In this document: in pieces, positions 2,122 through 20,936 of the stretch | How positions within the stretch are numbered: position 1 is the first letter of the stretch | Layout of the letters: the number at the start of each line of letters is the position of its first letter | Source of the DNA: Escherichia coli | Lineage (GTDB): Bacteria; Pseudomonadota; Gammaproteobacteria; Enterobacterales; Enterobacteriaceae | Assembly (NCBI RefSeq): GCF_003019035.1 | Contig: NZ_CP027447.1 | Direction: 5' to 3' (one strand) | DNA length: 64,000 nucleotides | Translations under genes and position numbers: made by a program | Notes under the pieces: model-generated | The model's database searches: none | The model's input: the letters and a program-made list of their open reading frames with translations, nothing else | What the model was told of the DNA's origin: nothing

Positions 2122-4554
2122 TTACAGCATATGTTCAGTACGGGCGATGATATCGTCCTGAGCGTCTGGAGAGAGCGCGGTGAAGAAGGCGGAATAGCCC
2201 GCGACACGCACTACCAGATCGCGGTACTGATCCGGATGTTTTTTCGCTTCCAGCAGCGTTTCGCGGGAAACGATGTTGTACTGAATATGCCAGCCTTTAT
2301 GCACTTCAAAGAAGGTGCGTAGCAGGATCATCAGTTTCTGCTTGTCAGATTCGTTCTCCAGCGTTGCCGGATTCAGTTTCTGGTTGAGCAACACGCCGCC
2401 GAGAATCGCGGCCGTAGGCAGTTTACCCACCGAGCCAATGACCGCAGTAGGGCCAAGATGATCAGTACCGGAGGCCGGACTAGCGCCTTCTGCCAGCGGG
2501 GTATGCGCTTTACGTCCGTCCGGCGTTGCCATCGTCTGCGCGCCAAAGGGTACGTTAGCGGAGATAGATGACGTACCCGCGTAATAATTGCCGCCAACCG
2601 GACCACGACCATAGCGCGGGTTATGGTACTGTTTTAGTTCGTCGATATAGGTCTGATAAGCGCGAGCCAGCAGCGTATCGACAGTATCATCGTCGTTGCC
2701 GTACTTAGGCGCACCGTTAATCAGCCGCTGACGCAGCTGCTCGTGAGTCAGGCCGTCGAAGTCATCCGCCAGTGCGGCAGCCAGCTGTTGCTGACCAATC
2801 GCGCCCTGTTCAAATACCAGTTTCTTCACTGCCGCCAGGCTGTTGCCGAGGTTAGCAATGCCGACCTGCAGGCCAGAAACCCAGTCATATTTCGCGCCGC
2901 CTTGCTTGATACTTTTCGCTCGCTCAATACAGTCATCCACCAGCGCCGAGCAGAGAATATCGTGTACGTTCTCTTCCAGCATGGTGTCGACGACATATTC
3001 GATTTCGATTGATTTACGCGTGTAGTAACGGATTTGCGTATCCCATGCGTCCATTACTTCATCGAAGTTGTTGAAGTTACCCGCTGACAACGCTTTTTCT
3101 TGTGGCAGGAACACTTTGCCGCTGGTGGCATCACGACCGCCTTCCAGCGCCGCCAGCATCACGCGGGCGAAGTTGATAAAGCTCATGCCGGTACAGCGAT
3201 AGCCCCATTTGCCACCGACGGCGGTTTCGATACAACCAATCGCTGCGTAGTCGTAAGCGTCCTGCGGTTCAATACCGAGTTTAATAAATTCCGGGATGAC
3301 GATTTCATCGTTGTTGAACGCCGGCATCCCGAAACCACAGCGGATCACCTGAACACAGGCATCGAGGAAATCGTTACTCATACCCGCGTGGTAGCGCACG
3401 CTGAGGTTAGGCTGAGTGGAACGCAGGCGACCGCAAGATTCGAGGATCGCATAAGAGAGTGGATTTACCGCGTCCATCGGTTGACCATCAACCAGATTTT
3501 GCCCGCCAATGGTGACGTTCTGATACAGCGGACTTCCCGCAGAGGCTTTTGAGTGTGAGCCGGAGCGGATTTTGTTCACTTCCAGCAATTTCAACCAGCA
3601 GCTATGCAGCATCTCGATGGCGTGTTCGCGATCCAGTGTCTGGTTCAGTTCAACGTCGCGGCGATAGTAAGGGTAGAGATACTGGTCCATACGACCAAAC
3701 GATACCGAGTGACCGTTAGATTCGATCTGCAAAATCAACTGGATGAAGTAACACAGTTGCAGCGCCTGCCAGAAAGTCTGCGGCGGCTGGTGGGCGATAA
3801 GATCGCAGTTTTCTGCTATCGCCAGCAGTTCATCGCGACGGCTTTCGCGGGTTTCAGTGGCTGCCATTTCACGCGCCAGGGCAGCGAAACGTTCAATGTG
3901 TTCACTGACTGCCACCAGCACGATATCAATCGCTTTCAGGAACTGCTCGCCGTGCAAATCTTCCAGCACCGTCAGGTTGATGCGCGAGCGACGTTCCGCT
4001 ACTTTCTCGCGCAGACCATCAAGACCTTTTTCCAGCAGTAGCGGGAAATTGACCGCCAGGTGCGCATCGCCGGAGGTCATATTGCCCTCCGCTTTAATGA
4101 TGCCGGTCGCCAGCAGACCTTTTTGCTCATCGGTAAACATGCCGTAGCAGCGATCCTGTACGGTCTGACCGCGCCACCACGGGCACACTTCATGCAGAAC
4201 GCGTTTGTTCTCTTCGCTCACCGCAAAACCAGCACCGGGACGATCTGCCAGATCATCAATCTCTTTTTCGATCCATGAGACGGTATATTCCGGGAAGATC
4301 GGCGCGGCGCGAACTTCGCTTGCCTGGTTGCCAATGATCAATTCATCGTGCTTGATCCAGATGGTGCGATTCGCCAGGTGATGCGCCAGTGCCAGCGCGC
4401 GACGTACCGGGATCGGCTTATCGAGATGTTGTTGATACATCCCGGTATAGTGCTGCGCGCGCTCGGTACAAACCGGCGGTTTCACAATATGCACCAGCGC
4501 ATTTTTGTGCGCTTTAATGCGGTCGCTGAGCGTGTCCAGTTTCAGTGTGGTCAT
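2122..4554 (-). CDS. ybiW: Glycyl-radical enzyme, pyruvate formate-lyase-like
   Basis: 810-aa ORF; PFL-family length and C-terminal glycyl-radical region (RVAGYSAFF); matches recalled E. coli YbiW. Confidence 0.92.
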   Translation of the reverse strand: MTTLKLDTLSDRIKAHKNALVHIVKPPVCTERAQHYTGMYQQHLDKPIPVRRALALAHHLANRTIWIKHDELIIGNQASEVRAAPIFPEYTVSWIEKEIDDLADRPGAGFAVSEENKRVLHEVCPWWRGQTVQDRCYGMFTDEQKGLLATGIIKAEGNMTSGDAHLAVNFPLLLEKGLDGLREKVAERRSRINLTVLEDLHGEQFLKAIDIVLVAVSEHIERFAALAREMAATETRESRRDELLAIAENCDLIAHQPPQTFWQALQLCYFIQLILQIESNGHSVSFGRMDQYLYPYYRRDVELNQTLDREHAIEMLHSCWLKLLEVNKIRSGSHSKASAGSPLYQNVTIGGQNLVDGQPMDAVNPLSYAILESCGRLRSTQPNLSVRYHAGMSNDFLDACVQVIRCGFGMPAFNNDEIVIPEFIKLGIEPQDAYDYAAIGCIETAVGGKWGYRCTGMSFINFARVMLAALEGGRDATSGKVFLPQEKALSAGNFNNFDEVMDAWDTQIRYYTRKSIEIEYVVDTMLEENVHDILCSALVDDCIERAKSIKQGGAKYDWVSGLQVGIANLGNSLAAVKKLVFEQGAIGQQQLAAALADDFDGLTHEQLRQRLINGAPKYGNDDDTVDTLLARAYQTYIDELKQYHNPRYGRGPVGGNYYAGTSSISANVPFGAQTMATPDGRKAHTPLAEGASPASGTDHLGPTAVIGSVGKLPTAAILGGVLLNQKLNPATLENESDKQKLMILLRTFFEVHKGWHIQYNIVSRETLLEAKKHPDQYRDLVVRVAGYSAFFTALSPDAQDDIIARTEHML

Positions 4555-11358: not shown

Positions 11359-12897
11359 ATGGCAAGAGCTGTACACCGTAGTGGGTTAGTGGCGCTGGGC
11401 ATTGCGACAGCGTTGATGGCATCTTGTGCATTCGCTGCCAAAGATGTGGTGGTGGCGGTAGGATCGAACTTCACCACGCTCGATCCATATGACGCGAATG
11501 ACACGTTATCTCAGGCCGTAGCGAAATCGTTTTACCAGGGGCTGTTCGGTCTCGATAAAGAGATGAAACTGAAAAACGTGCTGGCGGAGAGCTATACCGT
11601 TTCCGATGACGGCCTTACTTACACCGTGAAACTGCGGGAAGGAATTAAATTCCAGGATGGCACCGATTTCAACGCAGCGGCGGTGAAAGCGAATCTGGAC
11701 CGGGCCAGCGATCCGGCGAATCATCTTAAACGCTATAACCTGTATAAGAATATTGCCAAAACGGAAGCGATCGATCCGACAACGGTAAAGATTACCCTCA
11801 AACAGCCGTTTTCAGCGTTTATTAATATTCTTGCCCATCCGGCGACCGCGATGATTTCACCGGCAGCGCTGGAAAAATATGGCAAGGATATTGGTTTTCA
11901 TCCGGTGGGAACCGGGCCGTATGAACTGGATACCTGGAATCAGACCGATTTTGTGAAAGTGAAAAAATTCGCGGGTTACTGGCAGCCAGGATTGCCCAAA
12001 CTGGACAGCATAACCTGGCGTCCGGTGGCGGATAACAACACCCGCGCGGCAATGCTACAAACCGGTGAAGCGCAGTTTGCTTTCCCCATTCCTTACGAGC
12101 AGGCCGCATTGCTGGAGAAAAACAAAAATATCGAGTTGATGGCCAGTCCGTCAATTATGCAGCGTTATATCAGTATGAACGTGACGCAAAAGCCGTTCGA
12201 TAACCCGAAGGTCCGTGAGGCGCTGAATTACGCCATTAACCGCCCGGCGCTGGTGAAAGTGGCCTTCGCGGGTTATGCAACGCCAGCTACTGGTGTGGTA
12301 CCGCCGAGTATCGCCTACGCGCAAAGTTATAAACCGTGGCCTTACGATCCGGCGAAAGCGCGCGAATTACTGAAAGAGGCGGGATATCCCAACGGTTTCA
12401 GTACCACGCTGTGGTCGTCACATAACCACAGCACTGCGCAGAAAGTGCTGCAATTTACCCAGCAGCAGTTAGCGCAGGTCGGGATTAAAGCCCAGGTGAC
12501 TGCGATGGATGCCGGACAGCGGGCGGCAGAAGTCGAAGGTAAAGGGCAAAAAGAGAGCGGCGTGCGGATGTTCTACACTGGCTGGTCGGCTTCAACCGGC
12601 GAAGCAGACTGGGCTCTATCGCCGCTGTTTGCCTCGCAGAACTGGCCACCGACGCTGTTTAATACCGCGTTTTACAGCAATAAACAGGTGGATGACTTCC
12701 TGGCTCAGGCATTGAAAACTAATGATCCGGCGGAAAAGACCCGTTTATATAAGGCGGCGCAGGATATCATCTGGCAAGAGTCGCCGTGGATCCCGCTGGT
12801 GGTAGAAAAACTGGTGTCGGCACACAGTAAAAACCTGACCGGTTTTTGGATCATGCCAGACACCGGCTTCAGCTTTGAAGACGCGGATTTGCAATAA
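11359..12897 (+). CDS. gsiB: Glutathione ABC transporter periplasmic binding protein
   Basis: Start at ATG 11359 ([26 protein letters not shown] signal peptide); family-5 solute-binding protein; 512 aa. Confidence 0.92.
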
Positions 12898-14925: not shown

Positions 14926-17274
14926 ATGCTGAGTTTATACGAAAAGATAAAGATAAGGCTGATAATTTTATTTTTATTGGCAGCACTGTCATTTATTGGT
15001 CTTTTTTTCATCATTAACTATCAACTGGTATCGGAACGCGCGGTAAAACGTGCCGATAGCCGCTTTGAACTTATTCAGAAAAACGTTGGCTATTTCTTTA
15101 AAGATATTGAACGTTCGGCCCTGACATTAAAGGACTCACTGTATTTATTAAAAAATACAGAGGAGATTCAACGCGCCGTAATTCTGAAAATGGAAATGAT
15201 GCCATTTTTAGACTCGGTGGGACTGGTACTTGATGATAATAAATATTATCTCTTTTCGCGGAGGGCGAATGATAAAATCGTTGTTTATCATCAGGAACAA
15301 GTAAATGGACCGCTTGTCGACGAGTCAGGGCGGGTTATTTTTGCCGATTTTAACCCGTCGAAACGACCGTGGTCGGTGGCTTCAGATGACTCTAACAACA
15401 GCTGGAATCCGGCATACAATTGCTTTGATCGTCCGGGTAAAAAATGTATCTCTTTTACGCTACACATCAACGGCAAAGATCACGATTTGTTAGCGGTGGA
15501 TAAAATTCATGTCGATTTAAACTGGCGATATCTGAACGAGTATCTTGATCAAATCAGCGCTAATGATGAAGTTCTATTTTTAAAGCAAGGTCATGAGATC
15601 ATTGCTAAGAATCAACTCGCTCGTGAAAAATTGATTATTTATAATAGCGAAGGTAATTATAATATTATTGATTCTGTCGATACGGAATATATTGAAAAAA
15701 CATCAGCGGTGCCAAACAACGCATTATTCGAAATCTATTTTTATTATCCTGGTGGTAATTTATTGAACGCATCAGATAAACTTTTTTATCTGCCGTTTGC
15801 TTTCATTATTATCGTATTGCTGGTGGTTTATTTAATGACCACTCGTGTGTTCCGTCGGCAATTTTCTGAAATGACCGAGCTGGTTAATACGCTGGCGTTT
15901 TTGCCCGACTCAACGGATCAGATCGAGGCTCTGAAAATTCGCGAAGGCGATGCGAAAGAGATTATCAGCATCAAAAATTCGATCGCGGAAATGAAAGATG
16001 CCGAAATTGAACGGTCAAATAAATTGCTCTCACTGATCTCTTACGATCAGGAAAGCGGTTTTATTAAAAATATGGCGATTATTGAGTCCAACAATAATCA
16101 GTATCTGGCTGTGGGGATCATCAAACTGTGTGGTCTGGAAGCCGTGGAAGCGGTGTTTGGTGTTGATGAACGCAATAAAATCGTCAGGAAATTGTGTCAG
16201 CGAATTGCTGAGAAATATGCGCAATGCTGCGATATCGTGACATTTAATGCCGATCTTTATTTACTCCTGTGCCGGGAAAATGTACAGACGTTTACCCGTA
16301 AGATAGCGACGGTAAACGATTTTGACAGCAGTTTTGGCTACCGCAATCTGCGCATCCATAAGTCTGCTATTTGTGAACCTTTGCAGGGGGAAAACGCCTG
16401 GAGTTACGCAGAAAAGCTGAAACTGGCGATTTCCAGTATCCGCAACCATATGTTCTCAGAGTTTATTTTCTGTGATGATGCGAAACTCAACGAAATAGAA
16501 GAGAATATCTGGATTGCGCGTAATATTCGCCATGCAATGGAAATTGGCGAACTATTCCTGGTCTATCAACCGATTGTTGATATTAACACCCGCACCATTT
16601 TGGGCGCGGAGGCGTTGTGCCGTTGGGTGTCTGCGGAGCGGGGGATCATTTCACCGCTAAAGTTCATTACCATTGCTGAAGATATCGGGTTTATCAATGA
16701 GCTGGGTTATCAGATTATTAAAACGGCAATGGGTGAATTCAGACATTTTAGTCAGCGTGCGTCGCTGAAGGATGATTTCTTACTGCATATTAATGTTTCG
16801 CCCTGGCAGTTAAACGAACCACACTTTCATGAGCGTTTTACCACCATCATGGAAGAAAATGGCCTGAAGGCGAACAGCCTCTGTGTTGAGATCACTGAAA
16901 CCGTGATCGAGCGAATTAATGAACATTTTTATCTCAATATTGAACAACTGCGTAAACAAGGGGTACGGATATCGATTGATGACTTTGGCACCGGTTTGTC
17001 AAACCTGAAACGTTTTTATGAAATTAATCCAGATAGCATAAAAGTGGACTCGCAATTTACCGGCGATATTTTCGGTACTGCGGGAAAAATTGTGCGCATT
17101 ATTTTCGATCTGGCACGCTATAACCGGATCCCGGTGATTGCGGAAGGCGTAGAGAGCGAAGACGTTGCGCGTGAATTAATCAAATTAGGATGTGTTCAGG
17201 CTCAGGGGTATCTGTACCAGAAACCCATGCCGTTCTCCGCCTGGGATAAAAGTGGAAAATTAGTAAAAGAGTAG
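14926..17274 (+). CDS. pdeI: c-di-GMP phosphodiesterase (EAL domain with N-terminal membrane/periplasmic sensor region)
   Basis: 782-aa ORF; C-terminal EAL-domain motifs (EALCRW, DDFGTG); matches recalled YliE/PdeI. Confidence 0.9.
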
Positions 17275-17281
17275 TGTACGT

Positions 17282-18610
17282 ATGTCCAGAATCAATAAAT
17301 TCGTACTTACAGTCAGTCTGCTGATTTTTATCATGATTTCAGCAGTTGCCTGCGGGATCTACACTCAAATGGTAAAGGAACGGGTGTATGGCCTGAAACA
17401 GTCCGTTATTGATACTGCTTTTGCGGTGGCAAATATTGCTGAATATCGGCGTAGTGTGGCAATTGATCTGATCAACACGCTAAATCCTACGGAGGAACAG
17501 CTGTTGGTTGGCTTACGCACAGCTTACGCCGACTCGCTTTCACCCTCTTATTTGTACGATGTCGGTCCTTATCTGATTTCCAGTGACGAATGTATTCAGG
17601 TAAAGGAGTTCGAGAAAAATTATTGTGCAGATATTATGCAGGTTGTTAAGTATCGACATGTCAAAAATACAGGGTTTATCTCTTTTGATGGTAAAACCTT
17701 CGTCTATTACCTCTATCCGGTAACTCACAATCGTAGTCTGATATTTTTGCTTGGTCTGGAACGTTTTTCTTTACTGTCAAAATCGCTGGCGATGGATAGC
17801 GAGAACCTGATGTTCTCCCTGTTCAAGAACGGTAAATCGGTGACCGGTGATGAATATAACGCTAAAAACGCCATCTTCACCGTTTCGGAAGCGATGGAGC
17901 ACTTCGCCTATTTGCCGACCGGATTGTACGTATTTGCGTATAAAAAAGACGTTTATTTTCAGGTATGTATGTTGATTATTTTCTTTGCTGCATTGGTGGC
18001 AGTGATATCGGGTGCTAGCTGCCTTTATCTGGTACGCAGAGTGATTAATCGTGGCATTGTGGAGAAAGAAGCCATTATTAATAACCATTTTGAACGCGTC
18101 CTGGACGGTGGGCTTTTCTTTTCGGCTGCCGATGTCAAAAAACTCTACAGTCTGTATAACTCGGCGTTCCTGGATGACCTGACCAAAGCGATGGGCAGAA
18201 AATCCTTTGACGAAGATTTAAAAGCCCTGCCGGAAAAAGGCGGTTATTTGTGCCTGTTTGACGTCGATAAATTCAAAAACATTAACGACACCTTCGGTCA
18301 TTTGCTGGGCGATGAAGTGTTGATGAAAGTGGTGAAAATCCTTAAATCACAGATCCCCGTAGATAAAGGTAAAGTCTACCGCTTCGGTGGTGACGAATTT
18401 GCGGTGATTTATACGGGTGGAACGCTGGAAGAGTTGCTATCGATTCTAAAAGAAATCGTTCATTTCCAGGTGGGAAGCATTAATTTAAGTACCAGTATCG
18501 GTGTAGCGCATTCAAATGAATGTCCTACCGTCGAACGCTTGAAAATGCTGGCGGATGAGCGGCTGTATAAGAGTAAGAAAAACGGCAGGGCGCAGATTAG
18601 CTGGCAGTAG
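17282..18610 (+). CDS. dgcI: Diguanylate cyclase (GGDEF)
   Basis: 442-aa ORF; GGDEF active-site motif present (RFGGDEFAV); matches recalled YliF/DgcI. Confidence 0.9.
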
Positions 18611-18623
18611 AATTAGAATAGTG

Positions 18624-18651
18624 TTAGTACCCCTTAATCAAGGGGTACTAA
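18624..18651. terminator. Perfect inverted repeat between convergent dgcI and antitoxin gene (possible bidirectional terminator; no clear U-tract)
   Basis: ttagtacccctt-aatc-aaggggtactaa read directly. Confidence 0.4.
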
Positions 18652-18679
18652 TGAATGTGGTAAATCATTTGCAAACATT

Positions 18680-19009
18680 TTACTTTGCAAAAACTTCCGG
18701 CCCTTTTATTGCCAATGTATTCAAAATACGTAATGCCGGGCCGCTCGGTTTTATTTCATTACGTTCCCATTTCGAGACACTTTCTTTTGACATTCCCATT
18801 GTATGTGCCAGCACGGATTGTGACATGCCGTATCGGGTGCGGATGGCTTTGATCTCTTCACCCGTCATTGATTTGACTTTGGCTATACGGGCGCTGACTT
18901 CACGAGCTTTGACCATGACGGCAATGGCATCAACTTCACTATCAGACATCAGGCCCAGTGCATTCAGTTCCTTTGCATCTTCCAGCATCATTTGTAATTT
19001 ATCGCTCAT
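18680..19009 (-). CDS. HTH (XRE-family) antitoxin, HigA-like
   Basis: 109-aa ORF; C-terminal helix-turn-helix (GMSQSVLAHTMGMSKESVSKWE); overlaps the 3' end of the upstream toxin ORF by 11 nt. Confidence 0.75.
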   Translation of the reverse strand: MSDKLQMMLEDAKELNALGLMSDSEVDAIAVMVKAREVSARIAKVKSMTGEEIKAIRTRYGMSQSVLAHTMGMSKESVSKWERNEIKPSGPALRILNTLAIKGPEVFAK

Positions 19010-19385
19010 TTTTCACCTCAATCAAAAAGCCAGTTTCGATCAAATCCTCTATTTGCTTATTGCTAAAGGCCAGAAATGCATTTGCCATTTTTTTGTAGGC
19101 CGCCAGTTCATCATCTTCGATTTCTTTGGTTCCTTTACTGCTTAGACCACTCTTGGACCAACCATCATAAAAAAACACATGATTTGCTGATTTAAAAAAG
19201 ATAATTGTTCTGGCTCCACCACTCTTTCCTTGTTGGAGGGGTAAACGTTTTTTGATGACACCGCTACCTAAATCAGCCTCCCATATGCCCTGCATCACTT
19301 CTTCAGCGGCAGCCATGAGAACTTTATCGTGAATACCAAGTTTTTTCGTGCTTTGGCTGAATCGTCTTGCCTTATACACACCCAT
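18999..19385 (-). CDS. RelE/ParE-superfamily toxin, HigB-like (toxin-first gene order)
   Basis: 128-aa ORF; KSGGARTIIFF segment resembles HigB/RelE-type killer proteins; paired with the downstream XRE antitoxin. Confidence 0.7.
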   Translation of the reverse strand: MGVYKARRFSQSTKKLGIHDKVLMAAAEEVMQGIWEADLGSGVIKKRLPLQQGKSGGARTIIFFKSANHVFFYDGWSKSGLSSKGTKEIEDDELAAYKKMANAFLAFSNKQIEDLIETGFLIEVKNER

Positions 19386-19399
19386 ACATCCATCCTTGT

Positions 19400-19427
19400 G
19401 GTAATGTTTACTATAGTAACCATTACG
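19400..19427. promoter_or_regulatory. Near-perfect ~28-bp palindrome upstream of the toxin gene (putative autoregulatory operator)
   Basis: ggtaatgtttactatagtaaccattacg; contains the perfect 12-bp palindrome TTACTATAGTAA; 15 bp upstream of the toxin start. Confidence 0.5.
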
Positions 19428-19610
19428 CTTATTTCAAGTAATTGCGATCAAAACTTTAATTTGGTGTGAAAAAGTGAGAGTTGCCTCGAGTACGATACAT
19501 TTTTCTCGATTTATGCGTCAGGGGATTTTGTGCGTAAGGGTAGGACATCGGGAAGGGTAGCAGAGGCAGATCGAAGAACAATATCCTTGTTAGATCTGCC
19601 TTTAAATTAA

Positions 19611-20936
19611 TTAAACCCGGCTACCCCACAAATCGTACTCATCGGCGTGCTCGACTTTCACACGCAGGATATCACCCGGCTTAACGTTGGTTTCACCATT
19701 GAGATAAACCGCGCCGTCGATTTCCGGTGCATCTGCCATGCTGCGACCAATCGCGCCTTCTTCGTCCACTTCGTCGATAATCACCAGAATTTCACGGCCC
19801 ACTTTCTCTTGCAGGCGCTCGGCGGAAATTTGCTGCTGCAACTGCATGAAACGGTTCCAGCGTTCTTCTTTCACTTCTTCCGGAACCTGGTCAGGCAGGG
19901 CATTGGCGTCTGCACCTTCAACCGGGCTGTATTTAAAGCAGCCAACGCGATCCAGACGTGCTTCTTTCAGGAAGTCGAGTAGCATCTGGAAATCTTCTTC
20001 CGTCTCGCCAGGGAAGCCAACAATAAAGGTTGAGCGTAGGGTCAGTTCCGGGCAGATTTCGCGCCACTGTTTAATGCGCGCCAGTTGGCGATCTACAGAA
20101 CCCGGACGTTTCATCAGTTTGAGAATGCGCGGGCTGGCGTGCTGCAGCGGAATGTCCAGATAGGGCAGGATTTTGCCTTCTGCCATCAGTGGGATGACGT
20201 CGTCCACATGCGGATAAGGGTAAACGTAGTGCAGACGTGTCCAGATCCCCAGTTTCGATAACTGTTCGCACAGGCTGACCATGCTGGTTTTTACCGGCTC
20301 GCCGTTGTGGAAGCCAGTACGATGTTTAACATCAACGCCATAGGCGGAAGTATCCTGCGAGATCACCAGAATCTCTTTAACGCCCGCATCAACCAGACGT
20401 TTCGCTTCACTTAACACTTCGCCAATCGGACGGCTCACCAGGTCGCCGCGCATAGACGGAATAATGCAGAAGGTGCAGCGGTGATTACAGCCTTCAGAAA
20501 TTTTCAGATAGGCATAATGACGCGGCGTCAGTTTCACGCCTTGTTCTGGCACCAGGCTCAGGAATGGGTTGTGTTTCGGTTTTGGCACGTAGTGATGAAC
20601 GTGCTCCAGAACCTGCTCATAGCTATGAGGCCCGGTGATTTCCAGCACTTTCGGGTGGACTTCGCGGATCTGATCTTCTTTTGCCCCCAGACAACCGGTC
20701 ACAATTACCTTGCCGTTTTCATTCAACGCTTCACCAATGGCTTCCAGTGATTCTTGTACCGCGCTGTCAATAAAGCCGCAGGTGTTGACGATCACCATGT
20801 CCGCATCGTCATAGCTCGGTACCACGTCATAACCTTCAGTGCGTAGTTCGGTGAGAATACGCTCTGAATCGACAAGGTTTTTCGGACAGCCAAGGGAAAC
20901 AAAGCCGATTTTCGGCTGGGGAGTTACTTTGCTCAT
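19611..20936 (-). CDS. rimO: Ribosomal protein S12 methylthiotransferase (radical SAM)
   Basis: 441-aa ORF; radical-SAM CxxxCxxC (CNHRCTFC) and MiaB-like layout. Confidence 0.93.

Follow-up and report, generated by a model that had tools for sequence, protein, structure and literature searches.

What does the spacer between dgcI and rimO hold in those Escherichia coli strains in which it is long, and how did it come to be there? The question arises from a 64,000-nucleotide stretch of E. coli contig NZ_CP027447.1 (assembly GCF_003019035.1), the whole of which we refer to as the window, in which dgcI (17282-18610, plus strand) and rimO (19611-20936, minus strand) are separated by 1000 bp (18611-19610), whereas in K-12 MG1655 the same two genes lie only 46 bp apart. 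We conclude that the spacer very probably holds an intact, chromosomal, putatively autorepressed type II toxin-antitoxin (TA) operon of the HigB-2/HigA-2 (PF06296) family, which is probably an old resident of the interval between gsiD and rimO. The data directly support how its genes are arranged, the family to which it belongs, its fold and active-site positions, the action of purifying selection on it, the conservation of its operator and its distribution in the population.

The spacer contains two open reading frames (ORFs), both on the minus strand and overlapping by 11 nt, the first of which encodes the predicted toxin and the second the predicted antitoxin (Table 1). A first-pass annotation of the window had stated that dgcI directly adjoins rimO in K-12 and that two overlapping genes are found between them here, first a RelE/ParE-superfamily toxin and then an antitoxin with an XRE-type helix-turn-helix (HTH); the comparison with K-12, which lacks the pair, together with the ORFs and their Pfam matches, agrees with it on all these counts. 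Identical genes in strain IAI39 already carry the RefSeq labels "type II toxin-antitoxin system RelE/ParE family toxin" and "helix-turn-helix domain-containing protein". The pair has the general features of a type II TA system, namely adjacent co-oriented genes, toxin homology, an HTH antitoxin and a putative palindromic operator at its own predicted promoter, and it has those of the HigB-2/HigA-2 group in particular, namely the PF06296 profile, the gene order, the fold and the antitoxin homology.

The toxin matches the Pfam profile PF06296 ("RelE") over its residues 1-124 (model positions 1-120 of 120; E = 7.9e-33, 113.7 bits), and this is the family of Vibrio cholerae HigB-2, a ribosome-dependent mRNA endonuclease encoded in toxin-antitoxin gene order (2025 RelE/ParE superfamily survey, PMC11980606). 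No match was found to the Rts1-type HigB Pfam profiles PF05015 and PF09907, nor to any NCBIfam model. The description "HigB/HigA-like" given in the first pass consequently holds for the gene order but not for the family, which is that of HigB-2 (PF06296) and not of Rts1 HigB. When a family profile built from 27 homologues was searched against the PDB, only HigB-2 chains were matched (E = 1.7e-4), and HigB-2 is also the PDB entry nearest to the RelE/BECR fold predicted for the toxin. Substitution of Arg51, Arg64, Tyr82 or Lys84 cripples HigB-2 (PMC5416850), and in the profile alignment the equivalents of these residues are R47, R59, W76 and K78, respectively. Neither 27 close nor 41 diverse homologues show any variation at R47, R59 and K78, and across the same homologues position 76 is occupied by Trp or Phe, with Phe in the distant members. 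Judged by its sequence the toxin looks catalytically competent, the change from Tyr to Trp being the one doubtful point. In 77 related loci the toxin is paired with an HTH partner of 97-117 residues, the toxin-first order is kept, and in nearly all of them so is an overlap or a tight junction between the two genes.

The antitoxin matches Pfam HTH_3, the XRE-type HTH, at residues 53-94 (E = 3.4e-9), falls below every curated cut-off in NCBIfam and shows a weak, sub-threshold likeness to the C-terminal half of MqsA and to NadS. When a family profile was built from 32 cognate antitoxins and searched against the PDB, V. cholerae HigA-2 came out on top (E = 2.1e-13), residues 48-103 of the antitoxin aligning with residues 38-93 of HigA-2, and in both proteins the HTH occupies the same, C-terminal position. 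We also modeled the toxin and the antitoxin with AlphaFold2 as a single chain joined by a 30-residue linker, using an alignment of 41 paired sequences. The fused model reached a predicted local distance difference test (pLDDT) score of 84 and a predicted template modeling (pTM) score of 0.73, with the N-terminal antitoxin helices at pLDDT 94-97; such confidence is unusual for free helices and suggests that these helices dock on the toxin. The defense models of PADLOC gave no match for the toxin and only generic HTH matches for the antitoxin, and in PHROGs nothing was matched but generic regulators and families whose function is unknown.

Is the operon still that of a working toxin, or has the module decayed, the toxin being no longer toxic and the HTH protein being kept as an ordinary transcription factor? 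The second possibility might be suspected from the replacement of Tyr82 of HigB-2 by Trp76, although Trp or Phe at this position is the norm of the family and no local lesion, and the three other active-site residues do not vary in the 41 diverse pairs. It might also be suspected from several frameshifted toxin variants in databases and from a rare in-frame deletion of 72 bp in the toxin core that leaves the antitoxin intact, but the 72-bp segment, which encodes the catalytic strands, is kept in 1135 of 1138 carriers, with at least 99% identity in 1131 of them. Nor do the patterns of substitution resemble those of decay: the ratio of non-synonymous to synonymous divergence (dN/dS) is 0.05-0.08 for toxin and antitoxin alike, with 20 synonymous differences against a single non-synonymous one within E. 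coli, where synonymous divergence (dS) is 0.04-0.07. Between E. coli lineages the toxin protein shows at most one residue of difference, and IAI39, O157:H7, HS and strain 51489 encode the same antitoxin protein, although their genes for it are set apart by 3-5 synonymous differences. We therefore judge decay quite improbable; toxin inactivation occurs but does not spread.

Two kinds of disrupted allele may be recorded here. The rare deletion (loci L096-L098 of our collection, toxin at 4001-4315) corresponds to positions 19155-19226 of the window and removes residues 54-77, including R59 and W76; it lies between two AAGAGTGGT direct repeats, and at most three of the 1138 carriers are without the segment. 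In strain 98232 (L092, 2618-3826) the insertion sequence IS1414 (IS256-like) stands at the last codon of the antitoxin (about position 18680), which changes K109 to Glu and adds six residues, and the toxin is intact.

How, then, might the operon be controlled? A consensus scan found one good promoter on the toxin strand (10 of 12 matches), and its -10 box falls at the exact center of a palindrome which ends 15 nt upstream of the toxin ATG. The first pass had reported a near-perfect palindrome of 28 bp just upstream of the toxin and taken it for a likely autoregulatory operator. The palindrome is present, but its length is 26 bp: it has two arms of 13 nt with one mismatched pair and no spacer, and on the toxin strand it reads GTAATGGTTAC-TATA-GTAAACATTAC and so consists of two inverted repeats, each 11 bp long and of the pattern GTAA-N3-TTAC. 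Its reading as an operator gains support from its overlap with the predicted promoter and from its conservation in orthologues. Kluyvera georgiana, K. sichuanensis and the uncultured Enterobacteriaceae genome UBA5654 have, in their orthologous loci, all kept the two-unit layout, the TATAGT hexamer and the 16 nt to a -35-like hexamer, and the remaining upstream region cannot be aligned. The two-unit layout is found in Siccibacter, Photorhabdus and Legionella as well, and one or two units around a -10 box occur from Enterobacterales to Legionella. Across 72 related loci, 25 exact GTAA-N3-TTAC sequences lie within the 70 nt upstream of toxin genes (4.96/kb), compared with nine in the roughly 615 kb elsewhere in the same loci (0.015/kb), an enrichment of about 340-fold. 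The two further exact copies in the window, at 11785 and 42421, are the number expected by chance.

Could the palindrome nevertheless be no operator but a by-product of an AT-rich -10 region, or a hairpin in the transcript? Its center is the -10 hexamer itself, and AT-rich palindromes are more frequent than average in promoters. However, the GTAA/TTAC outer half-sites lie beyond the -10 box and are kept where the rest of the orthologous spacer is unalignable, the exact unit is strongly enriched upstream of the toxins of this family, and a distant subfamily has, in the same place, a different palindrome together with a different recognition helix. We regard a palindrome of either such origin as very improbable indeed. 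It behaves as would be expected from its sequence of an operator co-evolving with its repressor, because distant members change the palindrome and the recognition helix together.

The operator class in question is TAT-A/G-Y-CACT-N-AGTG-R-TATA, which lies over a TATAAT or TATACT -10 box 10-60 nt upstream of distant PF06296 toxins (L035-L086); this TATCACT-N-AGTGATA type goes with the recognition helix TSxSTVQKWEQG rather than with MSKESVSKWERG. The Legionella antitoxins have a third variant of the recognition helix, yet a site of the GTAAT-N-ATTAC type is kept there.

From these features a mode of action can be proposed in which RNase activity, neutralization, DNA binding and induction upon antitoxin degradation would follow the V. 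cholerae system. A single sigma-70 promoter would give rise to a bicistronic mRNA, toxin first and antitoxin second, whose two cistrons would be translationally coupled through the 11-nt overlap and the strong antitoxin Shine-Dalgarno sequence; as that sequence and the antitoxin ATG are embedded inside the toxin frame, coupled and abundant synthesis of antitoxin would be favored. The toxin would be a RelE-fold, ribosome-dependent endonuclease cutting mRNA in the ribosomal A site, as V. cholerae HigB-2 is a ribosome-dependent mRNA-cleaving enzyme (PMC5416850), and it would be neutralized by the N-terminal helical part of the antitoxin. An antitoxin dimer would bind the two adjacent GTAA-N3-TTAC inverted repeats via its C-terminal XRE HTH, and with the operator units covering the promoter spacer, the -10 box and a transcript start predicted near 19403, bound antitoxin would be expected to repress the operon. 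There is a parallel for such a placement in the operator of V. cholerae HigA-2, a single inverted repeat that begins after the -35 box and reaches over the -10 box (PMC11006873).

Table 1. Predicted features of the dgcI-rimO spacer (window coordinates).
Feature	Position	Strand	Description
Toxin gene	18999-19385	-	128 residues; predicted HigB-2-type RelE-fold mRNA endonuclease
Antitoxin gene	18680-19009	-	109 residues; N-terminal helical part, about 1-46 (putatively toxin-binding), and C-terminal XRE HTH, about 48-103
TA allele	18611-19604		994 nt in place of a 40-nt hairpin-bearing segment of K-12, from alignment with K-12
Operator (predicted)	19401-19426		26-bp near-palindrome; GTAA-N3-TTAC units at 19401-19411 and 19416-19426 with TATA between
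Sigma-70 promoter (predicted)	19410-19437	-	-35 TTGAAA at 19437-19432, 16-nt spacer, -10 TATAGT at 19415-19410
Shine-Dalgarno-like AAGGA (toxin)	19393-19397	-	7 nt upstream of toxin ATG; moderate; read from sequence
Shine-Dalgarno GAGGTG (antitoxin)	19014-19019	-	Strong; within 3' end of toxin gene; read from sequence
Hairpin, dgcI side	18624-18651		Perfect 12-bp stem, 4-nt loop; probable bidirectional terminator of TA allele
Hairpin, rimO side	19564-19601		3' of rimO stop, upstream of TA promoter; probable rimO terminator/insulator

A further question is how the module is distributed. The dgcI-rimO spacer is a clean two-allele polymorphism in E. coli: 1138 of 5426 complete genomes (21%) have the 1-kb segment, nearly always in single copy and on the chromosome, 4287 (79%) have the K-12-type short spacer, and the two alleles together account for 5425 of the 5426. 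Carriers include IAI39, CE10, SMS-3-5, O157:H7 and HS; the short allele is found in K-12, JJ1886 and NRG 857C. The first-pass view of the pair as a strain-specific accessory module therefore has to be given up, 1138 genomes holding it at the same site, but the pair is indeed not universal in E. coli, and hence not core. Among four carriers the module diverges by 0.3-1.6%, compared with 0.5-1.1% for rimO and 1.1-3.7% for dgcI. No clear recombination tract around the indel was detected among four carriers and K-12; the 3' halves of rimO are identical in HS and K-12, yet the indel differs. A tblastn search of the plasmid database PLSDB found no copy with more than 58% identity, and the E. coli module is chromosomal only. 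Three PLSDB entries with an identical module (CP088669.1, NZ_CP134663.1 and NZ_CP141089.1) are 0.73-4.9 Mb in length and look like chromosomes, or fragments of them, filed as plasmids.

Alignment with K-12 shows that the two alleles differ by replacement, each segment carrying a hairpin of its own, which in K-12 is terminator-like. On the left, the homology with K-12 breaks precisely at the stop codon of dgcI, which is TAG here but TAA in K-12, and on the right it restarts at AATTAATTAAACC, which spans the rimO stop. Because a different 40-nt segment fills the same break points, the K-12 allele is no simple empty site. We also considered whether the K-12 segment derives from the TA allele and rejected this, there being no alignment to support it. 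The 5-nt sequence AATTA stands at both ends of the TA allele (18611-18615 and 19605-19609), and may be a target duplication, deletion microhomology or chance. As for the marks of a mobile element, the segment holds no recombinase or transposase gene, AATTA is the sole candidate for a duplication, and the alternative allele is not empty.

Did the module reach this site recently, as a mobile accessory cassette inserted horizontally and strain by strain between dgcI and rimO? K-12 and 79% of the genomes are without it, but those that have it, from several lineages, have it at the same site, and between lineages it has diverged as much as the neighboring core genes. Its G+C content (41%) is well below that of rimO (52.5%), but its neighbors pdeI and dgcI are just as low. 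AATTA is found at both ends of the allele, but there is no integrase, no transposase and no terminal inverted repeats within the segment, and K-12 does not show the empty site. Members of the family do occur on plasmids of other genera, but the 58% ceiling noted above applies to every plasmid copy. Lastly, nothing was matched in representatives of other Escherichia, Salmonella and Citrobacter, as discussed below, but orthologues in Kluyvera and UBA5654 occupy the same interval and differ in their proportion of synonymous differences no more than the flanks do. On balance we regard a recent horizontal insertion as unlikely, albeit less so than decay of the module. The first-pass wording, "inserted between dgcI and rimO", is apt in that there is extra DNA relative to K-12, but that it was inserted recently is doubtful in view of the core-like divergence and of the shared interval.

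Support for a longer residence can be found in the nearest relatives of the module, those of UBA5654 (74% identity for the toxin, 78% for the antitoxin) and Kluyvera (68-74%), which share with it both the interval and the orientation. The genes of UBA5654 run gsiB-gsiC-gsiD, antitoxin, toxin, rimO, bssR, yliI; the pair of K. sichuanensis is flanked by gsiD and bssR, and that of K. georgiana adjoins gsiD. The proportion of synonymous differences relative to UBA5654 is 0.69-0.70 for the module genes versus 0.60-0.70 for rimO, gsiC, gsiD and yliI, values that are near saturation, and is compatible with common descent of the module and its flanks with the UBA5654 interval. With moderate confidence, and from comparisons of sequence and gene order, we take the module to have long resided in the gsiD-rimO interval and to have been lost by many lineages, rather than to have been inserted recently. 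One further homologue (P0006) lay on a 1.7-kb contig that offered no useful context.

The interval itself has gathered differing accessory genes by genus. In UBA5654 (L010, 3738-4688) an ORF of 316 residues stands between rimO and the toxin, with an N-terminus that by eye resembles SMI1/KNR4 (SUKH) immunity proteins, and K. georgiana has phosphotransferase system and mannosidase genes. In the window the module is part of a low-G+C block (14926-19610) in which pdeI has 41.3%, dgcI 43.4% and the TA module 41.2% G+C, compared with 49.8% for the window and 52.5% for rimO. In UBA5654 and K. sichuanensis the module is present with no pdeI-dgcI between gsiD and the antitoxin, and because of this the cyclic di-GMP (c-di-GMP) genes pdeI-dgcI may be the later arrival in the interval.

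Several of our observations weigh against the reading of this pair as an autorepressed, long-resident HigB-2/HigA-2 operon. A PDB search with the toxin as a single sequence returned zero matches, its identity to HigB-2 in the structural alignment is just 12-17%, and its 128 residues exceed the 110 of HigB-2 by 18, with one or two extra C-terminal helices and a strand. The catalytic Tyr82 of HigB-2 is Trp76 here, and activity is thus not guaranteed. Residues 1-46 of the antitoxin cannot be aligned with the disordered region of HigA-2 and are predicted to form two helices, so that the details of neutralization may differ. The base-contacting residues R68, E71, N72 and R77 of HigA-2 correspond to E76, S79, K80 and E85 here, and the operator sequence is also unrelated, which would make DNA recognition by this antitoxin only analogous to that of HigA-2. 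We found in the literature no paper or experiment on this E. coli locus or pair. As regards its age, a search of one representative genome per species matched nothing in other Escherichia, Salmonella and Citrobacter, although a single genome per species cannot exclude polymorphism, because the E. coli representative is also without a chromosomal match. The E. coli DNA found in that search was just a misbinned 1.2-kb contig (JAIJJM010000872.1, L009) of a "Collinsella sp." metagenome-assembled genome, which is 100% identical to the E. coli TA genes and almost certainly E. coli DNA.

Around the operon, the spacer is marked by two hairpins. The operon is co-directional with rimO, with the hairpin at 19564-19601 between them, and convergent with dgcI, with the hairpin at 18624-18651 between them. 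The latter had been noticed in the first pass and is there, its stem perfect; the former had been missed. The dgcI-side hairpin folds at -20.5 kcal/mol (z = -4.2) when read on the plus strand and at -17.7 kcal/mol (z = -3.5) when read on the minus strand; for the rimO-side hairpin, read on the strand of rimO, the energy is -16.2 kcal/mol (z = -4.0). Both are more stable than shuffled sequence (z from -3.2 to -4.2), and neither has a clean U-tract. Inverted repeats with 13-nt arms (at most one mismatch, loop of at most 4 nt) occur at only two places in the 64-kb window, both in the spacer, and just 0.6% of first-order Markov randomizations of the 1-kb region contain such a repeat. Rfam gave no RNA family over 18400-19800. 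An imperfect 17-nt tandem repeat (TTTATGCGTCAGGGGAT / TTTGTGCGTAAGGGTAG) is found at 19510-19543, with the toxin promoter on one side of it and the rimO-side hairpin on the other.

What forces might have kept two alleles of one spacer? It is conceivable that both have long been kept by selection, either through a conditional benefit of the module, such as phage defense by abortive infection, or through altered expression of its neighbors in c-di-GMP metabolism and ribosome modification, as the module follows rimO in the same direction, runs towards dgcI and takes the place of the terminator that the two genes share. We put this forward as speculation and think it about as improbable as decay of the toxin, although, if it were true, the module could no longer be regarded as just a selfish addiction element.

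As a HigB-2/HigA-2 operon, the module is an ordinary, already annotated member of a known family that is experimentally uncharacterized in E. coli, and the value of our analysis lies mainly in annotation: O157:H7, IAI39, CE10, SMS-3-5, HS and the other carriers, about one fifth of sequenced E. coli, gain one more RelE-fold toxin, which matters for inventories of TA systems and for studies of persistence or phage defense in pathogenic lineages. We know of no member of the PF06296 family in E. coli K-12. Two small points appear to be new, the family-wide grammar of the operator and the picture of population and synteny. The first provides a ready DNA target for studying HigA-2-type repressors, and the second makes of the two-allele spacer a convenient marker and a natural experiment on the persistence of chromosomal TA modules.

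It is instructive to set the module beside the known systems that it most resembles. With MqsR/MqsA it shares the toxin-first order and the C-terminal HTH of the antitoxin (TIGR03830, 47.1 bits; Pfam MqsA_antitoxin, E = 5e-4), but the former score is below the cut-off of 61.8 and covers the C-terminal half only, the zinc-binding CxxC domain is missing from an antitoxin with zero cysteines, and the toxin is not of PF15723; an identity as MqsRA was rejected for its sub-cut-off score and lack of a zinc domain. The HigB/HigA pairs of Proteus vulgaris Rts1 and of E. coli K-12 (YgjN/YgjM) are alike in their toxin-first order, RelE-superfamily fold and XRE-type antitoxin. Closer by description are two toxin-first systems, HigBA2 on a plasmid of Acinetobacter baumannii, in which the antitoxin is autorepressing with the toxin as corepressor and the plasmid is stabilized (PMC5906591), and the HigB2/HigA2-type pair of the Coxiella burnetii plasmid QpH1, likewise with autorepression and plasmid stabilization (PMC10098735). 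Both of these have been shown to be functional and reside on plasmids, whereas the E. coli module is confined to the chromosome; when used as a tblastn query, its toxin does match Coxiella plasmids.

The closest counterpart is V. cholerae HigB-2/HigA-2 (higBA2; PDB 5JA8, 5JAA and 8A0X), which has a PF06296 toxin and toxin-first order, is the top PDB match for both partners by profile and fold, and shares the Arg, Arg and Lys positions of the active site, an antitoxin made up of a putative N-terminal neutralizing part and a C-terminal XRE HTH, and an operator that lies downstream of the -35 box and over the -10 box. The two systems differ in that the N-terminus of HigA-2 is disordered and folds into a helix and a strand, whereas two helices are predicted for the E. 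coli antitoxin, and in that the V. cholerae operator is a single TGTACGC-N5-GCGTACA repeat, whereas that of E. coli consists of two GTAA-N3-TTAC units and the base-contacting residues differ. They differ also in their surroundings: the V. cholerae pair is found in a superintegron cassette, and the E. coli pair in a conserved chromosomal interval.

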